A stretch of DNA of 62,422 nt from Patescibacteria group bacterium (GTDB lineage: Bacteria > Patescibacteriota > Patescibacteriia > Patescibacteriales > JAQTRU01). The stretch's first letter is position 1, and each line of letters begins with the position of its first letter. Shown here piece by piece: positions 8,265-56,972 of this stretch. Location: positions 1-62,422 of the forward strand of contig JBAZPX010000005.1 in the NCBI GenBank assembly GCA_041645555.1. The letters run 5' to 3'. The notes under the pieces were generated by a model that was given only the letters and a program-made list of their open reading frames with translations, was not told where the DNA came from and made no database searches. The position numbers were made by a program, and so were the translations under genes.

Positions 8265-8337
8265 TAATTTATTTGGCTTTGCCAATTCTAAAAAAAATCA
8301 GCCGGAATTATTAAGTGAGTTAAATTAATTATATGAA

Positions 8338-8493
8338 CCCCGTTAGAAATAGATTTCTAAGCGGGGTGAACCCCACTAGAAATTTGGTTAACTAGAAAAA
8401 ATAAAGAAATTTTTAGTGGGTGGAAAGAAGATATATTTAAAATAAATTAAAATATTTTTATGGAAAAAAATAATAACGAAATTTCTAACGGGG
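8338..8493 (+). repeat. CCCCGTTAGAAAT-armed cassette, copy 1 (expanded; contains a nested variant arm pair)
   Basis: Left arm is 8338-8350. An adjacent imperfect right arm ATTTCTAAGCGGGG is at 8353-8366. A variant pair is CCCCACTAGAAAT 8371-8383 / ATTTTTAGTGGG 8409-8420. The perfect right arm ATTTCTAACGGGG is at 8481-8493, inside codons 8-12 of the transporter ORF. A mini-ORF spans 8333-8395. Confidence 0.85.
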
Positions 8494-9533
8494 TGAATAA
8501 AAACATTATTTCCAAAGTTTTTTTAATTATTCTGATTATTTTTGTTATTTTCGCCTGTTATTTGGTATTCCGGCCCTTTTTAGTAGAAATCCTGGCCGCC
8601 GCGATTCTCGTTTCAATTTTTTACACCCCTTACGAGTGGCTGGTTAAAAAATTCCGCAATCACCGGAATTTAGCTTCGCTTGTCATGTGCTTATTGGTAA
8701 TTTTAATCGTAATTATTCCGGCTATAAATTTAATTATTTATACGGCGCAAAGGTCGGTTCTGGCCTATTCGGATACGATTAATTTTTTAAACCGGACTGA
8801 TTTGGACGGCGCCATAAAAAATAGTATTTTAGAGAAAGCCAATTTATTGGGCCTGGACAGCAGCGACTTAAAAGTTTTTGTCGCCGATATCGCTAAAAAG
8901 TCAAGCAACTGGCTGGTAAGCGGGGCGGCGACTTTAGTAAGGGGGACAACCAGTTTTATTATCTCCCTGATCATAATTATTCTGACTATGTTTTTCTTTT
9001 TTGTGGACGGCAATAAAATGATGGAAAAAATAATGTATTGGACGCCGCTTTCCAATAAATACGACCGGGAAATATTTAAGAAATTCCGCGATGTGAGCTA
9101 TTCAACCATGATTTCAACTTTCGTGGTGGCGATTGCCCAGGGAACGGTTGGCGCAATCGGATTTATGATTATCGGCTTGCCGGCCTTTTTTGCCGGTTTG
9201 CTGATGGGGTTCTTTTCCCTTGTTCCTTATATCGGCTCCGGTTTTATCTGGTTTCCAACGGCCATCTATCTTCTTTTTACCGGTAAAATTTGGCAGGGAG
9301 TTTTCCTTCTGGCCTGGGGCGTTTTAGTGATTAGCGTGATTGATAATCTTATCCGGGCTTATATTATTAAAGGCAGAGCCCAGGTCCACCCGATTTTTAT
9401 TATTTTATCAATTTTGGGCGGAATTTCTCTATTCGGCTTTTGGGGAGTGTTTTTAGGCCCGTTAGTAATTTCCATCGCCATTACGGTTTTCCATATTTAC
9501 GAACTGGAATATGGGGAAGCGCTGGAGAAATAA
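8460..9533 (+). CDS. AI-2E family transporter (PerM/UPF0118-like permease)
   Basis: About 357 aa and multi-pass, with the family-typical layout and a C-terminal P.FIILS.LGG...G..G.FLGP motif. The first 12 codons come from the repeat cassette, and GTG at 8493 is an alternative start. Confidence 0.8.
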   Translation: MEKNNNEISNGVNKNIISKVFLIILIIFVIFACYLVFRPFLVEILAAAILVSIFYTPYEWLVKKFRNHRNLASLVMCLLVILIVIIPAINLIIYTAQRSVLAYSDTINFLNRTDLDGAIKNSILEKANLLGLDSSDLKVFVADIAKKSSNWLVSGAATLVRGTTSFIISLIIIILTMFFFFVDGNKMMEKIMYWTPLSNKYDREIFKKFRDVSYSTMISTFVVAIAQGTVGAIGFMIIGLPAFFAGLLMGFFSLVPYIGSGFIWFPTAIYLLFTGKIWQGVFLLAWGVLVISVIDNLIRAYIIKGRAQVHPIFIILSILGGISLFGFWGVFLGPLVISIAITVFHIYELEYGEALEK

Positions 9534-9604: not shown

Positions 9605-9955
9605 ATGAAGACTTTTAGATTTTTTGATTTTCCGGTTTATGAATAGGCGAAGAGATGTTATAAAAATATTTTGATTATATCGCTAAGAGTTCAAGATTAT
9701 TCTTTCAGGGATCAGATAAAACGGGCGGCTCTGTCAGTAATTTTGAATATTGCAGAAGGTTCCGCGAAAAAATCCGACAAAGATTTTGCTAAATTTTTAG
9801 AAATTTCTATCGCCTCAGCAAACGAAGTAGTCGCTTGTTTAGATATTATGCATGATTTTAAGAAAATTTCCGATAAAGAATGGGAAGTTCTAAAAGAAGA
9901 TTTAGAAAGTGTAGTAAAACAGTTAGGCGGATTTATAAAAAATTTAAGAAAATAA
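9605..9955 (+). pseudogene. Four-helix-bundle protein (23S rRNA intervening-sequence protein family) interrupted by an in-frame TAG
   Basis: ATG 9605 gives MKTFRFFDFPVYE, then TAG (9644-9646), then the same frame continues AKRCYKNILIISLRVQDYSFRDQIKRAALSVILNIAEGSAKKS... The core motif RAA.S...NIAEG is typical of this family. The track ORF 9671..9955 is only the part downstream of the stop. Confidence 0.7.
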
Positions 9956-11296: not shown

Positions 11297-11311
11297 ACCC
11301 ATTTTTATGGA

Positions 11312-11418
11312 CCCCGTTAGAAATCTAGCTACAAAAAATAAAGTTTCTAACGGGGAAAAAGATATTCAAAAATAAAATATTATTATGGAGGAAAAAATCA
11401 ATAAAATTTCTAACGGGG
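11312..11418 (+). repeat. CCCCGTTAGAAAT-armed cassette, copy 2 (mgtA leader)
   Basis: Left arm is 11312-11324. The first right arm GTTTCTAACGGGG is at 11343-11355. The second, perfect right arm is at 11406-11418, in mgtA codons 8-12. A mini-ORF spans 11307-11375. Confidence 0.85.
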
Positions 11419-13985
11419 TGGATAACCAGAAGCAAAACTTAGATTATTTTTTCAAAAATAGAATTGAGGATATTTATTCATTTTTGCAATCTTCTTCTAA
11501 TGGGCTTAAAGCCGAGGAAGTGGAAGCTAGGCTTTTAAATTACGGGTATAACGTTATAAAAAGGGAGAAAAAACTAAGTTTGGCCGTTGAGTTTTTGTCT
11601 CATTTCAAAAATCCCTTAGTAATAATCCTGTTATTTGTTTCCGCCGTTTCCGCTTATTTCGGCGAAACCACAAACGCGGTTATTGTTATAATAATGGTCT
11701 TGGCCAGCGTTATCCTTGATTTTTTTGAAGAACATAGCGCCAATGATGCTTCTAAAAAGTTAAGGGAAAAAGTTTCAATTACCGCCACGGTTTTGCGCGA
11801 CGGAGAGGCGAAAGAAATAAAAACGAAAAAACTTGTGCCGGGAGACGTTGTCCTTTTAAATTCGGGCGATTTAATCCCGGCTGATTGCCGGATTATTGAG
11901 GCGAACGATTTTTTTGTCAACCAATCGTCTTTAACCGGAGAATCGTTTCCTCTGGAAAAGGCCGCCGGCGTTCCGGCAAACGAGGAGGCGGCTCTGGGCG
12001 AGATAGAAAACATCGCTTTTATGGGTTCTAATGTCGTGAGCGGTACGGCTAAAGCGATTATTTTTTCGACCGGCAGCCAGACCCAATTCGGCAAAATTGC
12101 CGGTTCTTTAAGCAAAAAAGAGGCGAAAAGCGAATTTGAAGTCGGCGTAGTAAGCTTTGGTTATTTTATAATGAAGGTTATTATTTTTTTAGTGCTGCTC
12201 ATCTTTTTCTTTAATGCCTTAGTGGGCCGGGATATAATTGAGGTTTTTATATTTTCTCTGGCTATTGCCGTCGGCGTTACCCCCGAGCTTCTGCCTATGA
12301 TTATGTCGATTACCATGGCGCGCGGTTCGGTGAAAATGGCGAAAGACGGGGTAATTGTGAAAAAGCTTTCCTCCATCCCGGGTTTTGGCAGCATGGACAT
12401 ACTTTGCACGGATAAAACCGGAACTCTGACAGAAGATAAAATTAAATTAATTAAATATACAGACACCATCGGCAAGACGAATGAAGATGTATTTCTTTAT
12501 ACTTTCCTTAATAGTTTTTATCAGACCGGGGTGGAAAATCCTTTAGATAAAGCTGTTTTGGAGTTTAGAAAAACGAATTGCGAGGAGTTCAAAAAAATTG
12601 ACGAAATTCCTTTTGATTTCATAAGGAAGATGATGAGCATTATTGTTGAGGGGAAAAAAGGGCAGAGGTATTTAATAACCAAGGGAGCGCCGGAAAATAT
12701 TTTTTTAATTTGTAATAATTTTAAAAATGGTTCAAAGAATGAAAAATTCACGGGTAAGGCGGTTTCCAAGGCGACAGAGTATTACAAAAACATGAGCGCT
12801 GCCGGGTATCGTGTTTTAGCCGTGGCGATTAAAGAACTGCCTAAAGATTCTGACAAAAGAGAATTGTCTAATATTGATAAATATTCCAAGAGCGATGAAT
12901 CGTCTATGACGCTTATCGGCTTTGTGTCTTTTCTCGATCCGGCCAAAGAAGATGTGCGCGAGGTTTTGCGGGAGCTTGAAGCCATGGGCGTGGAAATTAA
13001 GATTATCACCGGCGATAACGAATTGGTGGCGCAAAAAATTTGCCGCGATGTCGGGCTTAATGTTCGCGGGATTTTATTAGGCAGCGAACTTGATAATTTA
13101 ACGGACGATGCCCTGGCTAAAAAAGCCGAGGCCACGACTTTATTTGCTAAATTTTCGCCGGATGAAAAAAATCGCGTGATTGTCGCTTTGCGGTCCCGGC
13201 ATCATGTGGTAGGCTATATGGGCGACGGCATTAACGACGCGCCGTCCATTAGGGCCGCGGATGTGGGCATATCGGTTAATAACGCGGTCGATATCGCCAG
13301 GGAGTCGGCTGATTTTATTTTAACCCAGAAAAACCTGAGATCCCTGGTCGACGGAATAATCCAGGGCCGGCGGTCTTTCGGCAACACGATGAAATATATT
13401 ATGATGGGCTTGAGCTCTAATTTCGGGAATATGTTCAGCGTTGTCGGCGCCATTTTTTACCTCCCCTTTCTGCCGATGCTGCCTATCCAAATATTGCTTA
13501 ACAATTTTATTTATGACCTTTCGCAGGTAACCATACCGACCGATAAGGTTGATAAAGAATGGATTAAATTGCCCAGGCGCTGGGACATAAGTTTTGTCAA
13601 AAAATTTATGCTCACTTTCGGGCCGATAAGCTCTTTGTTCGATTTTATTACGTTTTTTATTCTTTTCTCTGTTTTTAAGCTTTCGGCGCCGGAATTTCAA
13701 ACCGGCTGGTTTTTGGAATCATTAGCCACTCAGACTTTAGTAATTCATATAATCAGGACCAGAAAGCTGCCCTTTTTTCAGAGCCGGGCAAGCGCGCTGC
13801 TGTTTTTATCAACCTTTGCCTGCGTGGCAATCGGCTGGCTGATTCCCTATACCGCTTTAGGCCGATTTTTCCAATTCGCCCAGCTTCCTTTTCATATATT
13901 AGCAGTCATCGCCGTCTTGGTTTTGATTTATCTGGTTTTGGTTGAAATAGTAAAAAGAATTTTTTATAGAAAATTCGCGCAATAA
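11385..13985 (+). CDS. mgtA: Magnesium-translocating P-type ATPase
   Basis: DKTGTLT phosphorylation site and GDGINDAP hinge. The C-terminal region SSNFGNMFSV...LPFLPMLPIQILLNN.IYD.SQ..IP.D.VD closely matches the MgtA-type signature. Confidence 0.9.
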   Translation: MEEKINKISNGVDNQKQNLDYFFKNRIEDIYSFLQSSSNGLKAEEVEARLLNYGYNVIKREKKLSLAVEFLSHFKNPLVIILLFVSAVSAYFGETTNAVIVIIMVLASVILDFFEEHSANDASKKLREKVSITATVLRDGEAKEIKTKKLVPGDVVLLNSGDLIPADCRIIEANDFFVNQSSLTGESFPLEKAAGVPANEEAALGEIENIAFMGSNVVSGTAKAIIFSTGSQTQFGKIAGSLSKKEAKSEFEVGVVSFGYFIMKVIIFLVLLIFFFNALVGRDIIEVFIFSLAIAVGVTPELLPMIMSITMARGSVKMAKDGVIVKKLSSIPGFGSMDILCTDKTGTLTEDKIKLIKYTDTIGKTNEDVFLYTFLNSFYQTGVENPLDKAVLEFRKTNCEEFKKIDEIPFDFIRKMMSIIVEGKKGQRYLITKGAPENIFLICNNFKNGSKNEKFTGKAVSKATEYYKNMSAAGYRVLAVAIKELPKDSDKRELSNIDKYSKSDESSMTLIGFVSFLDPAKEDVREVLRELEAMGVEIKIITGDNELVAQKICRDVGLNVRGILLGSELDNLTDDALAKKAEATTLFAKFSPDEKNRVIVALRSRHHVVGYMGDGINDAPSIRAADVGISVNNAVDIARESADFILTQKNLRSLVDGIIQGRRSFGNTMKYIMMGLSSNFGNMFSVVGAIFYLPFLPMLPIQILLNNFIYDLSQVTIPTDKVDKEWIKLPRRWDISFVKKFMLTFGPISSLFDFITFFILFSVFKLSAPEFQTGWFLESLATQTLVIHIIRTRKLPFFQSRASALLFLSTFACVAIGWLIPYTALGRFFQFAQLPFHILAVIAVLVLIYLVLVEIVKRIFYRKFAQ

Positions 13986-13986
13986 T

Positions 13987-13998
13987 CCCCGTTAGAAA
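13987..13998 (+). repeat. Solo left-arm copy CCCCGTTAGAAA immediately after the mgtA stop
   Basis: This is an exact 12-mer match to the cassette arm. A short partner TTCTAA lies at 14016-14021. Confidence 0.6.
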
Positions 13999-14036
13999 GG
14001 GCGGGGCTCATCATGTTCTAATAACATCTTACTTTT

Positions 14037-20530: not shown

Positions 20531-20799
20531 TTTTTGTTTAATATTAGCTAAAATTAAGTCTAATATTTGATTAAAATAAAGCGGCACATCCAGTGAAAAC
20601 GGGTAAGAGGGGATGATTTCTTTAAAATTATTGGTGTTTTTTAATATTTTACTGTATAATGTAATTAGCTTGTGGATCAGTTGTGGGTAAACCCCGTTAA
20701 ATAAGAGCTGTTTGTCCGCCTGTTGGGCGGGTAATTTAATGGCTTTTGCCTTGTTAAATACTTTATATTTAACGGGACAAGACGGGGTTATTTAACAGG

Positions 20800-20866
20800 G
20801 GTAAATATATAAATAAAATTAAGGATTTAGGCCTTTAAAACTCCTTAATTTATTTATATATTTACC
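20800..20866 (+). promoter_or_regulatory. Long AT-rich perfect-type hairpin in the HU leader
   Basis: GGTAAATATATAAATAAAATTAAGGA (20800-20825) pairs with TCCTTAATTTATTTATATATTTACC (20842-20866). That is 25 bp with one bulge and a 16-nt loop. Confidence 0.7.
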
Positions 20867-27894: not shown

Positions 27895-28275
27895 TCCCGA
27901 CCCGCCGCTGGCGGATTCGGGAAGGGCTCTAAAAATCCACATTAGTGGAGACAAGTAGGCCCAGTAAAGGTCGGGTCCCGACGATTCGGGATGGGTTTGC
28001 TCAAATTAATAAATAAAAATTGTCTTTTAGATTATGGGTTATCAATAGATCGGCAAAGTTTTACCCCCACACTTATGTATATTAAGTGGGGGATCCCGAT
28101 CCCGAGTACTCGGGAGGGATTGGCGAATTTCCCTATGCAATTTGCCCCCTATTTATCGCTTATTATATATAAGTGTGGGGGGGGACGGAATTCCGGCCGA
28201 TTTATTCGGTTTACCTTCTTAATTTAAAGGACAGAACGCAATCGGATGTTCGCGCTTTCAGGCGCGGGACATCCG
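27895..28275 (+). promoter_or_regulatory. Highly structured GC-rich leader upstream of the 1305-aa surface-protein gene
   Basis: Hairpins seen: TCCCGA...TCGGGA (27895-27922, 27976-27991, 28100-28115). A 12-bp long-range pairing is CCCCACACTTAT (28065-28076) with ATAAGTGTGGGG (28169-28180). A strong hairpin CGGATGTTCGCGC/GCGCGGGACATCCG spans 28243-28275, ending 19 nt before the ATG. Confidence 0.55.
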
Positions 28276-46553: not shown

Positions 46554-46584
46554 GGATTTAAAATTTAAGATTTGATTTTATGAA

Positions 46585-46689
46585 CCCCGTTAGAAATCTT
46601 GCTAGAAATAAACGGATAAAAAATAGAATATTAAAAAATCAATTAGTATATTATTATGGAGAAAAAAAATAATAAAATTTCTAACGGGG
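46585..46689 (+). repeat. CCCCGTTAGAAAT-armed cassette, copy 3 (epimerase leader)
   Basis: Left arm is 46585-46597. The right arm 46677-46689 covers codons 8-12 of the ORF. A mini-ORF 46580-46672 overlaps the annotated ATG 46656. Confidence 0.85.
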
Positions 46690-47546
46690 TGAAAAAAATA
46701 TTAGTCACGGGCGGAGCCGGTTTTATCGGCTCGCATTTGATAGAGTGGCTAGTCCAGGACAAAAACAATAAAATAGTGTCTTTGGATAATTATTTTAGCG
46801 GCTCGGAAAAAAATCATATTAAGGGCGCTACCTATATAAAAGGGGAAACGAAAGATATTGAGGAGCATATTAAAGAAATTCCAGACATTGTTTATCATCT
46901 CGGAGAATATCCGCGGGTGTTAACGAGTTTTGACGATGTCTCCCTGGTCTGGAGGTTAAATATAACCGGCACCTTGGGCGTTTTGGAATTTTGTCGAAAA
47001 AATAATATAAAATTAGTGTATGCCGGCTCAAGCACAAAATTTGGCGATAATATCGGCGGCCGGACCGAGTCGCCCTACGCTTGGAGCAAAGCCAATAATA
47101 CTGAATTGGTAAATAATTACGGCCGGTGGTTTAACCTGCCGTACGTCGTAGTTTATTTTTATAATGTGTACGGCGGCCGGGAGATTTCCGAGGGGAAATA
47201 CGCCACGGTCATAGGGATTTTTTCCAGAAAATATAAGAATAAAGAGCCTTTAGCGGTTGTATCTCCGGGAACCCAAAGAAGGGCCTTTACCTATATTGAG
47301 GACACGGTAAGCGGCCTGGTCTTAGCCGGAGAAAAGGGGGAGGGCGACGGCTATTGCATAGGCTCGGAAAATACATACTCAATTTTGGAAATAGCCAAGC
47401 TTTTTGGCGGGGAAATTAAAATGCTGCCGCAGAAAAAGGGGGATAGATTGGCTTCAACCATTGATTTATCAAAAATGAAAGAATTGGGCTGGGCGGCAGA
47501 GCGTAGCGTTGAAGATTATATAAAGTCATTAAAGAATGGAAAATGA
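46656..47546 (+). CDS. NAD-dependent epimerase/dehydratase (UDP-glucuronate decarboxylase-like SDR)
   Basis: VTGGAGFIGSHL and YAWSK (YxxxK). The N-terminal 11 codons derive from the cassette. GTG 46689 would give MKKILVTGGAGFIGS, matching its two paralogs. Confidence 0.85.
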   Translation: MEKKNNKISNGVKKILVTGGAGFIGSHLIEWLVQDKNNKIVSLDNYFSGSEKNHIKGATYIKGETKDIEEHIKEIPDIVYHLGEYPRVLTSFDDVSLVWRLNITGTLGVLEFCRKNNIKLVYAGSSTKFGDNIGGRTESPYAWSKANNTELVNNYGRWFNLPYVVVYFYNVYGGREISEGKYATVIGIFSRKYKNKEPLAVVSPGTQRRAFTYIEDTVSGLVLAGEKGEGDGYCIGSENTYSILEIAKLFGGEIKMLPQKKGDRLASTIDLSKMKELGWAAERSVEDYIKSLKNGK

Positions 47547-55238: not shown

Positions 55239-56567
55239 ATGTCTAATAAAAGGAGAAAAATGAAAAATAAAAAGAAGGCAATTGGTTTTAAAAAAATAAA
55301 AAAAGCAAGCCGTGGGCAGCCGAAAAAGAAAGCGGGCGGAAAGAGGCGAACTGGCTGGGCGGAAAGAAAGGGAAGTTCTGGCGGCAAAAGGTATGCGGCG
55401 AAACAAAAAAGAAAGGGAAAAATTTTAGGAAAGAAAAAGGCCGAGCCGGTGAAAACAGAAAGACCGGCAGAAGAAGGCATGGAAAATTTAATCAGGAAAG
55501 GGAAGATGCGCGGTTTTGTTACGGAAACGGAATTGCTCCATTTGTTCCCGGAAGTGGAAGAATATATTTTTGATTATGAAGTTTTTTTAAGCCGGTTGCA
55601 GGAAAGTGGCGTGCAGATATTTGAAGATACGGGGAAAATTTTAGATTTTGAGGATAAGAGAGGGGAGAAAGCGGGAGATAAAAAATCGGCTTCAAAAAGG
55701 GCTCTGGCCGACAGCGCTAAGAATGTTGATTTGCTGAAATTAAATTCCGATTCTATCCAGATGTATTTAAAAGAAATCGGACGGGTCCCTTTGCTTAATG
55801 GGGAAGAGGAAATTGAGCTGGCCAAGAGGAAGGAAAAAGGCGATAAAGAAGCGGAGAAAAAAATAATAGAAGCCAATTTGCGCTTAGTTGTTTCTATCGC
55901 CAAAAAATTCGTCGGCGCCAAGGGCTTAAGTTTATTAGATTTAATCCAGGAAGGCAATATCGGCCTCTTTCGCGCTGTGGAAAAATTTGAATACCGCAAA
56001 GGGTATAAGTTTTCCACTTATGCCACCTGGTGGATTAGGCAGGCGATTACCCGCGCTTTGGCCGACCAGTCGCGCACTATCCGCATTCCGGTCCATATGG
56101 TGGAAACCATCAATAAATTTACGCAGGTGGAACGGCGCTTAATCCAGGATTTGGGCCGTGAGCCTATGCCGGAAGAAATCGCCTCCGAGATGGGCGAAGA
56201 TATTGATAAAGTAAGGCATATTATAAAGATTTCCCAGGATACAATTTCCCTGGAAACGACCGTAGGCGAAGACGAGGAAGATTCTACCTTAGAAGACTTT
56301 ATTGAGGACGTGAAAAATGTTGCCCCGGATCGGGCTGCCGCCTTGCAGTTATTAAAGGATTATGTCAAAGAAGTCGTAGCGACTTTATCTCCCCGCGAGC
56401 AAAAAATCCTGGAAATGCGCTTCGGCCTAATTGACGGAGTCGCCCATACCTTAGAAGAAGTCGGGCAGGAGTTTGAAGTTACCCGCGAGCGCATCCGCCA
56501 AATTGAAGCCAAAGCTTTAGAGCGCATCAGAAAGCACGACGGATTGCAAAAGCTCCGTGATTTCTAA
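55239..56567 (+). CDS. rpoD: Primary RNA polymerase sigma factor with a highly basic N-terminal extension
   Basis: Region 2 ([15 protein letters not shown]...[39 protein letters not shown]), region 3 and region 4 ([24 protein letters not shown]). Confidence 0.93.
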
Positions 56568-56600
56568 GAATTATGATTTAAGATTTAAGAATTAAGAATC
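56566..56600 (+). repeat. Heptanucleotide tandem array (AAGAWTT x5) right after rpoD
   Basis: aagaatt atgattt aagattt aagaatt aagaatc. This is the reverse-complement family of 56657-56691. Confidence 0.9.
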
Positions 56601-56610
56601 CTATAAAATC

Positions 56611-56638
56611 TTGACATTCCGAGAGAATTTATTATAAT
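56611..56638 (+). promoter_or_regulatory. Sigma70-like promoter upstream of the tRNA-Asn region
   Basis: TTGACA (56611-56616), 16-nt spacer, TATAAT (56633-56638). Confidence 0.55.
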
Positions 56639-56656
56639 AAAATAACAAAAAATTCG

Positions 56657-56691
56657 TCAATCTTAAATCTAAAATCTTAAATCTAAAATCA
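56657..56691 (+). repeat. Heptanucleotide tandem array (WAAATCT x5)
   Basis: tcaatct taaatct aaaatct taaatct aaaatca. Confidence 0.9.
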
Positions 56692-56696
56692 AAATA

Positions 56697-56896
56697 TTCC
56701 CGGGTAGCGCCCGACTTCACTTCGTTTCGGCGAGGCAGGCAGCGGTAGCTATTCGGAAATAATTTGGAAATTCGTAAATTAGTAAATTTATTAACATTCC
56801 CGGGTAGCGCCCGCCTTCACTTCGTTTCGGCGAGGCAGGCAGCGGTAGCTATTCGGAAATAATTTGGAAATTCGTAAATTAGTAAATTTATTAACA
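56697..56896 (+). repeat. Two 100-nt tandem repeats, each holding a split 5' fragment of tRNA-Asn plus leader
   Basis: 56697-56796 and 56797-56896 differ at one base (A56714 / C56814). Each unit is T + tRNA nt 1-13 + a 30-nt GC-rich insert + tRNA nt 14-22 + a 47-nt AT-rich tail. Confidence 0.95.
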
Positions 56897-56897
56897 T

Positions 56898-56972
56898 TCC
56901 CGGGTAGCGCAGCGGTAGCGCAGTTGGCTGTTAACCAATTGGTCGTCGGTTCGAATCCGACCCCGGGAGCCA
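56898..56972 (+). tRNA. trnN: tRNA-Asn (anticodon GTT), CCA end encoded
   Basis: Manual cloverleaf: acceptor TCCCGGG/CCCGGGA, D-arm GCGC-AGCGGTA-GCGC, anticodon stem GTTGG/CCAAT with loop CTGTTAA, T-arm GTCGG-TTCGAAT-CCGAC, discriminator G, then CCA. Confidence 0.92.

Follow-up and report, generated by a model that had tools for sequence, protein, structure and literature searches.

A miniature inverted-repeat transposable element of Patescibacteria and its probable replacement of start codons in unrelated genes

A cassette bounded by inverted repeats, which stands at the 5' ends of three unrelated genes in a contig of 62,422 nucleotides (nt) from a Patescibacteria group bacterium (JBAZPX010000005.1, assembly GCA_041645555.1; the whole stretch is called the window below), is most probably a miniature inverted-repeat transposable element (MITE) and not a riboswitch. 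With a length of about 30–160 nt, the element is too small to code for a transposase; it carries terminal inverted repeats (TIRs) of 13–15 bp, duplicates 4 bp, sometimes 5 bp, of a preferred target TNAA, often RTRAA, and would be moved by a transposase supplied in trans. At the beginning of a gene it displaces the original start codon and would offer its own. We put the probability of this reading as a whole, including the donated start codon, at roughly 0.85. It agrees with the first of two proposals in a preliminary description of the window, a MITE-like mobile 5' cassette that donates a start codon, and is supported by target-site duplications (TSDs), empty sites, dispersal and an internal ATG that is biased in frame and orientation.

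Copies, duplications and empty sites

The three copies, the solo arm and the related element described below are given on the forward strand of the window. The perfect 13-nt arms CCCCGTTAGAAAT and ATTTCTAACGGGG bound the element at three loci: copy 1 at an AI-2E transporter gene (8338–8350 and 8481–8493, 156 nt end to end), copy 2 at mgtA (11312–11324 and 11406–11418, 107 nt) and copy 3 at an SDR epimerase gene (46585–46597 and 46677–46689, 105 nt). With up to two mismatches, the arm motif has 12 matches in the window, compared with 2.6 in dinucleotide shuffles (maximum 6). The 3' halves of the three copies align almost base for base (ATATTWTTATGGAR, an A-rich run, AAATTTCTAACGGGGTG) and each contains an in-frame ATG; the annotated open reading frames (ORFs) are predicted to begin with MEKNNNEISNGV, MEEKINKISNGV and MEKKNNKISNGV. 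The left arms are read by mini-ORFs at 8333–8395 (MNPVRNRFLSGVNPTRNLVN), 11307–11375 (MDPVRNLATKNKVSNGEKDIQK) and 46580–46672 (MNPVRNLARNKRIKNRILKNQLVYYYGEKK), each closed by a stop codon. The loci, arm coordinates, lengths, shared N-termini, near-identical 3' halves and mini-ORF translations are all as the preliminary description had given them.

The 4 nt that precede each left arm recur directly after the right arm: TGAA in copies 1 and 3, TGGA in copy 2. At mgtA, the original ATG (11307–11309) and the left TGGA (11308–11311) together occupy 11307–11311 and are followed by the element (11312–11418), which contains a proximal partner of the left TIR (GTTTCTAACGGGG, 11343–11355) and an internal ATG (11385–11387); the junction GTG is at 11418–11420 and the right TGGA at 11419–11422. 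At the SDR gene, the original ATG (46580–46582) and the left TGAA (46581–46584) fill 46580–46584, the element runs from 46585 to 46689 with its internal ATG at 46656–46658, and the junction GTG (46689–46691) overlaps the right TGAA (46690–46693).

Copy 1 consists of two tandem units, with TGAA present three times (8334–8337, 8367–8370 and 8494–8497). Unit 1a (8338–8366) is a 29-nt element made of a hairpin only, CCCCGTTAGAAAT-AG-ATTTCTAAGCGGGG, with TGAA on both sides and a predicted hairpin energy of −16.5 kcal/mol. Unit 1b (8371–8493, 123 nt) is a full element with left TIR CCCCACTAGAAAT (8371–8383), internal partner (8409–8420), internal ATG (8460–8462) and right TIR (8481–8493). The last G of this TIR and the third TGAA (8493–8497) form the junction GTG (8493–8495) at the native N-terminal position of the gene, and the original ATG of the transporter gene (8333–8335), now parted from it, opens the mini-ORF at 8333–8395. 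The arms earlier seen as a pair nested within a single unit are the left repeat of unit 1b and its internal partner; the paired compensatory change between them is real, and the single-unit view is replaced by two tandem units.

Copies outside the window were collected in two scans. The first, for exact AAATTTCTAACGGGGTG in one genome per species, required GGGGTG and was biased to duplications beginning with TG; the second, of metagenome contigs, fixed both arms and left the flanks free, which corrects this bias. Counts from both scans rest on the matches listed and are lower bounds. In the metagenome scan, the 4-nt flanks are identical in 72 of the 118 non-redundant elements listed, against 11.3 ± 2.9 in 2000 permutations (maximum 22), and several further elements have 5-bp duplications. 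The most frequent duplications are TAAA/TTTA (26), TGAA/TTCA (22), TCAA/TTGA (9) and TGAG/CTCA (6), singletons include CAGG, CCAG, CTTG and GCCG, and GTTC also occurs; this spectrum indicates a loose TNAA target, often preceded by a purine. The two flanks also vary together, as in TGGG/TGGG (locus L020), TGCTA/TGCTA (L051) and GTGTA/GTGTA at the 5' end of a tRNA-Pro gene (L091). Among the matches listed in other genomes, 106 of 122 right arms have a left arm (at most two mismatches) within 260 nt upstream. Element lengths range from 29 to 156 nt, and the only ORFs inside are the mini-ORFs of 20–30 codons, with no transposase ORF. The TIR pair of the family, written as a search pattern, is CCCCGTTAGAA...TTCTAACGGGG.

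The comparison of orthologous loci that the preliminary description had suggested reveals relatives without the element at two of the three loci. The SDR locus is empty in three syntenic orthologs (L239 from JAQTSG01, L242 and L245; 85–92% amino acid identity, with a shared upstream gene whose product ends in ..KKEMGL), where the sequence reads ...TTTTATGAAAAAT..., ...TTTTATGAAAAATATTCTCGTTACC and ...TTTTATGAAAA(A/C)T..., with the gene beginning TTTTATGAAAAATATTCTC.. (MKNILVTGG). The window has GATTTTA-TGAA-CCCCGTTAGAAAT...ATTTCTAACGGGG-TGAA-AAAAATATTAGTC at this place, and deletion of the element together with one TGAA restores ATGAAAAAAATATTAGTC, which encodes MKKILV. At the AI-2E locus, occupancy forms a series: three relatives (L246, L248 and L249) are empty (...ATGAACAAAAAT...; ATATGAATAAG or CATATGAACAAAAAT, that is, ATGAA(T/C)AA(G/A)AAT, encoding MNKN..IS), the ortholog of JAQUPG01 (L251, 92% identical) has one unit, and the window has two. 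JAQTSG01 has no element at either locus, yet a copy of the same subfamily stands at a different gene there (L071); thus, insertions differ among genomes whose proteins are about 90% identical.

Three observations were made beside these comparisons. Locus L061 was considered as an AI-2E ortholog and rejected, being a copy of the same subfamily at a different gene of JAQUPG01, the true ortholog of which is L251. The empty AI-2E site of L246 (1190–1215, JAQTSG010000010.1) reads ATATGAATATGAATAAG, a tandem ATGAAT-ATGAAT or, equivalently, TGAA-TA-TGAA, which could be an excision footprint of the element or the result of simple slippage. P0002, an ortholog of the window SDR protein (90% identical), has another N-terminal extension, MDKSMSVKGGSVSGGK.., in place of ISNGV, and its start codon may be occupied by a different insertion.

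Start codons, reading frame and orientation

From the empty sites in relatives, it follows that the ATG of the mini-ORF is the original start codon of the gene, severed from it by insertion. All three window copies are inserted 4 nt after the A of the original ATG, at ATG·AA or ATG·GA, so that the old ATG now opens a short dead-end ORF in which the left repeat is read as (M)NPVRN. Where this ATG stood relative to the gene body there is now a GTG, made up of the final G of the right repeat and the duplicated TG. The element's own ATG, 6–12 codons upstream of the junction, is in frame with the right repeat (ISNG) and the gene. Most likely, the gene is translated from this ATG with an 11-residue extension, M-x-x-x-x-x-x-ISNG-V, and copies that have no internal ATG would start at the junction GTG.

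In 89 of 122 listed copies, the GTG at the junction shares its frame with a long ORF, while the other two frames account for 2 and 5. The pool of 213 elements from the two scans and the window includes 74 insertions placed exactly at a start codon (68 at ATG, 5 at GTG and 1 at TTG), so the bias of arm matches to gene starts, which the preliminary description had proposed to count, is present. An internal ATG in frame with the junction, with no stop codon between them, occurs in 58 of these 74 insertions and in only 6 of 74 if the element is flipped. Of the 74, 54 have their last ATG before the junction in frame, 8 have it out of frame and 12 have no such ATG; the distance from ATG to junction takes values of 18, 24, 27, 30, 33, 36, 42 and 45 nt: the length varies, and the multiple of three is kept. 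It should be noted that the TIRs are symmetric, and either orientation yields GGGG+TG, that is, GTG at the old start, while the interior is strongly oriented. Such a pattern of frame and orientation would be expected if selection favoured translation that begins at the element's ATG and continues through ISNG into the gene.

After the junction, the native N-termini of unrelated proteins can be recognised, for example VKLIIVESPTK (topA), VKCLITGGAGF (SDR) and VNILAIETSCD (tsaB). Elements that bear an ATG and have other duplications (CAGG, GTTC, CCAA and CTCA) also lie within a few nucleotides of a start codon, which means that their position is shaped no less by the retention of insertions that are productive than by a preference for the target. 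The mini-ORF opened by the old ATG ends no more than 20 nt from the new ATG in 30 of 58 copies, with an ATGA overlap in 7; in 15 of the 74 cases, the frame of the old ATG runs past the junction, mostly reading through into the gene.

Inverted repeats that flank a short directional segment directly upstream of genes, and that are conserved across genomes, also recall the invertons of some gut bacteria, in which the repeats would be recombinase sites and a flip of the segment of about 80–130 nt would switch the downstream gene. An invertible promoter or leader of this sort predicts neither direct 4-bp duplications of the flanks nor empty sites. At gene starts, the assembled copies have a single orientation (58 productive against 6), the shortest units measure just 29 nt and some copies lie inside ORFs; we regard an inverton as extremely unlikely.

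A second alternative places selection on the protein, with the peptide ..KISNGV.. serving as a tag or signal, and the recurrence of the same predicted peptide on many unrelated proteins with its frame maintained would suit it. What is conserved, however, is the DNA, the non-coding left arm included; the residues that separate M from ISNG vary freely (KNNNE in the window, KEDKK in the 92%-identical ortholog), and close orthologs have no such peptide at all. Searches of Pfam and NCBIfam with the element-encoded peptides matched no family; only the SDR core was matched, from residues 12–17 onward, which places the N-terminal extension outside the core fold of the family. A selected tag therefore has next to no likelihood in our estimate.

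Several results weigh against a MITE with a donated start codon. About one third of the copies have no matching flanks, and a recurrent class in which TTTA flanks the left arm and TGAA or TGGA the right arm (13 of 106 in the listed genome set; L019, L044, L046, L053, L055, L066, L080, L090, L103, L106, L143 and others) is not accounted for by a simple TSD. In this class, the TTTA flank lengthens the stem or palindrome by 4 bp through U-A and U·G pairs with TRRA; alternatively, its members could be recombinants between two neighbouring copies, and tandem or adjacent copies do occur (window copy 1, L064 and L099). A longer, 17-bp TIR (TTTA...TGAA) with a TSD further out was considered and rejected, as the flanks beyond show no identity. 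An N-terminal query found no empty site for copy 2, the best mgtA homologs being only 58% identical; in the absence of a close mgtA ortholog in the database, the evidence for insertion of this copy is its TGGA duplication.

The initiation signals and the source of the transposase are further points of this kind. A Shine–Dalgarno-like motif precedes only 9 of 54 internal ATGs; the native leaders of the genes, as seen at the empty SDR and AI-2E sites, are likewise AT-rich and without such a motif. In some copies the internal ATG is missing (ACG in L061), which implies that the junction GTG is enough in at least some cases. The fetched loci, about 1.5 Mb in total, yielded no autonomous parent that combines these TIRs with a transposase: no TIR pair there encloses a long ORF and no convincing orphan arm lies beside a transposase, and the long-range TIR pairs with matching flanks and the orphan arms are arms of separate short elements or degenerate copies.

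Predicted RNA structure and regulatory alternatives

In a transcript, the repeats are predicted to pair, with minimum free energies of −24 to −29 kcal/mol and z scores of −2.4 to −4.6, and in the predicted fold the new AUG falls within the loop, with the GUG at the foot of the stem. The earlier suggestion that arm pairing would enclose the start codon in a stem-loop is consistent with this model. Paired substitutions are found in the window (CCCCACTAG/CTAGTGGG) and at L077 (CCCCGCTAG/CTAGCGGGG). The compensatory change is explained equally well by maintenance of the palindrome in a mobile element and is no demonstration of RNA function. The predicted fold and the placement of the mini-ORF nevertheless allow an effect on expression mediated by the stem or by the upstream ORF.

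These features were the basis for weighing a cis-regulatory RNA (riboswitch, attenuator or thermosensor), in which the left arm would pair with a proximal or a distal right arm and so gate the start codons of a regulon. Pairing of the arms is predicted, copies 1 and 2 have a competing proximal partner, compensatory changes occur both in the window and at L077, and the TTTA left flank extends the stem through U·G pairs. Against this, the copies are insertions with TSDs and with empty sites in close relatives, the downstream genes have unrelated functions, some copies are read through within ORFs, and the arms are invariant across phyla rather than covarying; compensatory changes in a palindrome can also arise mechanically, by template switching, with no selection on RNA. 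Rfam gave no match to the element even at E ≤ 1: the search of the whole window at the gathering threshold and of two copies at E ≤ 1 returned only two tRNAs and two sub-threshold chance matches to snoRNAs. We consider it very unlikely that the element is a cis-regulatory RNA, and the second proposal of the preliminary description, a shared control module, was set aside as an account of what the element is, in view of the missing Rfam match, the unrelated genes, the copies inside ORFs and the insertions. A scan for promoters and terminators around copies 1 and 2 gave no enrichment over shuffles.

A broader role would be that of a portable translation-initiation module, long kept by genomes of the candidate phyla radiation (CPR), Omnitrophota and Planctomycetota type, and more than a parasite that is tolerated. 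The TIR stem and the stranded mini-ORF would then subject dozens of unrelated genes in each genome to a shared post-transcriptional control; alternatively or additionally, the transposase might actively target first codons, as the nearness of ATG-bearing copies to start codons under any duplicated tetranucleotide would suggest. On the present sequences, we hold this to be rather unlikely.

Two other readings of the arms were tried and rejected. Pairing with the 3' tail of 16S rRNA came down to just a 7-nt resemblance, and an attC- or integron-like reading of the back-to-back arms was also abandoned.

Distribution, known elements and other features of the window

The genome scan yielded at least 117 loci and the metagenome scan at least 120 contigs, more than 237 loci outside the window in all. 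The genome matches listed are nearly all metagenome-assembled genomes (MAGs) of the ultra-small Patescibacteria/CPR, spread over many candidate phyla (Moran-, Portnoy-, Buchanan-, Wildermuth-, Nealson-, Kerfeld-, Uhr-, Kaiser-, Azam-, Doudna- and Saccharibacteria, among others); the remainder are MAGs labelled Omnitrophota or Pirellulales/Phycisphaerae (Planctomycetota) and a few others. Near-identical TIRs across CPR phyla and MAGs labelled Omnitrophota and Planctomycetota imply a shared transposase and horizontal traffic between these uncultured groups. Viral contigs gave a single match, and phage carriage is not prominent. The target genes are unrelated and include topA, holB, tsaB, pilins, SDRs and transporters, and the window itself holds three copies, a related element and a remnant in 62 kb.

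In two Flavobacteriia genomes, some 295 bp separate a left arm from a sequence resembling the right arm (L039, 2565–2860, Brumimicrobium; L068, 2903–3199, Flavobacterium weaverense). The right-arm-like sequence is exact in L039 and has one mismatch in L068 (CTGGG for CGGGG), and the pair may represent a longer related element in a cultured lineage.

Not all insertions are at start codons. Eleven copies inside ORFs are read through and encode ..NPVRN..ISNGV.. (for example, AVNPVRNSSRALNPAAGQRGSISNGVNHG); in all but one of them (63 nt, in the view of L029), the element length plus 4 is divisible by three (53, 62, 68, 71 and 74 nt). A GC-rich subfamily of 68 nt typically has the flank GTAAA, and units of 29–35 nt are bare hairpins. 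At the tRNA-Pro site (L091, 739–845; L002, 6831–6880), the terminal CGGGG of the TIR and the duplicated TGTA rebuild the 5' end of the tRNA (CGGGGTGTAGTG...), and the displaced original 5' end (GGGGTGTA) is still present upstream of the left arm.

TIRs, a TSD, small size with no transposase, dispersed copies and presence/absence polymorphism were all found, as is characteristic of MITEs. With the MITEs of other bacteria (Correia/NEMIS of Neisseria, ERIC, RUP and Nezha), the family shares a length below 200 nt, non-coding character, TIRs, short TSDs, many dispersed copies that are polymorphic between close relatives, and repeats that fold into a stem when transcribed; bacterial MITEs can also alter the expression of a neighbouring gene. 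Correia and ERIC elements duplicate TA, whereas this family duplicates 4–5 bp at TNAA. It differs further in its near-identical TIRs across many phyla and in its systematic position at start codons, with an in-frame ATG reading outward through the TIR.

Insertion sequences (IS elements) that activate their neighbours through outward signals are comparable in that the end of a mobile element supplies expression signals to the adjacent gene. Here, the element is non-autonomous, and the signal would be a translation start (ATG, occasionally with a Shine–Dalgarno motif) and coding sequence through the TIR instead of a promoter.

Insertions that are bypassed in translation, such as the gap of T4 gene 60 and the mitochondrial 'byp' elements, likewise place a hairpin with identical short flanks in a coding region. 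Nothing in this family requires bypassing, and a mechanism of the gene 60 type was rejected: the identity of the flanks is that of an ordinary TSD, also found at intergenic sites, and the internal ATG explains expression.

Rickettsia palindromic elements (RPEs) are palindromic mobile repeats inserted in frame in unrelated genes (PMC10969869). Both they and the present family tolerate translation and add a conserved peptide, as in the 11 read-through copies described above, a likeness of function only, considered apart from the RPE consensus. The host differs (Rickettsia against CPR), RPEs are about 150 bp long, this family has clear TSDs, and most of its copies are at first codons, where they replace the start codon and are not internal fusions.

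A literature search that covered the arm sequences, the peptides, and MITE or IS elements in Patescibacteria/CPR found no description of the family and no mention of MITEs in CPR. As far as the searched libraries show, the kind of element is known but the family had not been described before, and comparative evidence gives good support to its unusual property.

If the family is a MITE with a donated start codon, many predicted N-termini (M....ISNGV) and small 'MNPVRN...' ORFs in such genomes would be transposon sequence, and start-codon calls and N-terminal signal predictions near the elements would be unreliable. By occupying the first codons with an outward-reading start codon, a MITE could turn a normally lethal insertion into a viable N-terminal fusion, which would open a route to novelty at protein N-termini and let selfish DNA survive in highly compact genomes. 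The insertions are also fine-scale markers, as empty, single and double states separate genomes with about 90% identical proteins.

Two further traces of the family in the window had been pointed out in the preliminary description. The solo arm after mgtA is present with one mismatch (CCCCGTTAGAAAG) and is a degenerate remnant or solo left TIR (CCCCGTTAGAAAG..CGGGG, 13987–14006), directly after the stop codon and with no matching flanks. The 'cousin' motif in the HU leader belongs in fact to a complete related MITE of 110 nt (20692–20801; TIRs CCCCGTTAAAT at 20692–20702 and ATTTAACAGGGG at 20790–20801) with a TAAA duplication (20688–20691 and 20802–20805; 20688–20805 in all), and it sits between an rlmN-like gene and the HU gene.

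The mgtA gene thus lies between two arms, a right one at the 5' end and the remnant of a left one at the 3' end (13987–14006). Its best homologs are only about 58% identical, and several of those that carry a source name are labelled archaeal, so the gene may have been acquired horizontally.

Two other repeats lie in the window. One, at 28064–28181, is an unrelated inverted repeat whose 23-nt arms (CCCCCACACTTATGTATATTAAG and CTTATTATATATAAGTGTGGGGG, separated by 72 nt) are 91% complementary, and it may represent another MITE family. The other, a long, imperfect and AT-rich palindrome of TTAAGATTTAAGA-type units (56555–56703; 43-nt arms, 74% complementary), lies about 200 nt upstream of tRNA-Asn (56898–56972). 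Just downstream of the AI-2E transporter gene, at 9671–9955, there is a gene of the 23S rRNA intervening-sequence-protein family (PF05635), and its position is kept in relatives.

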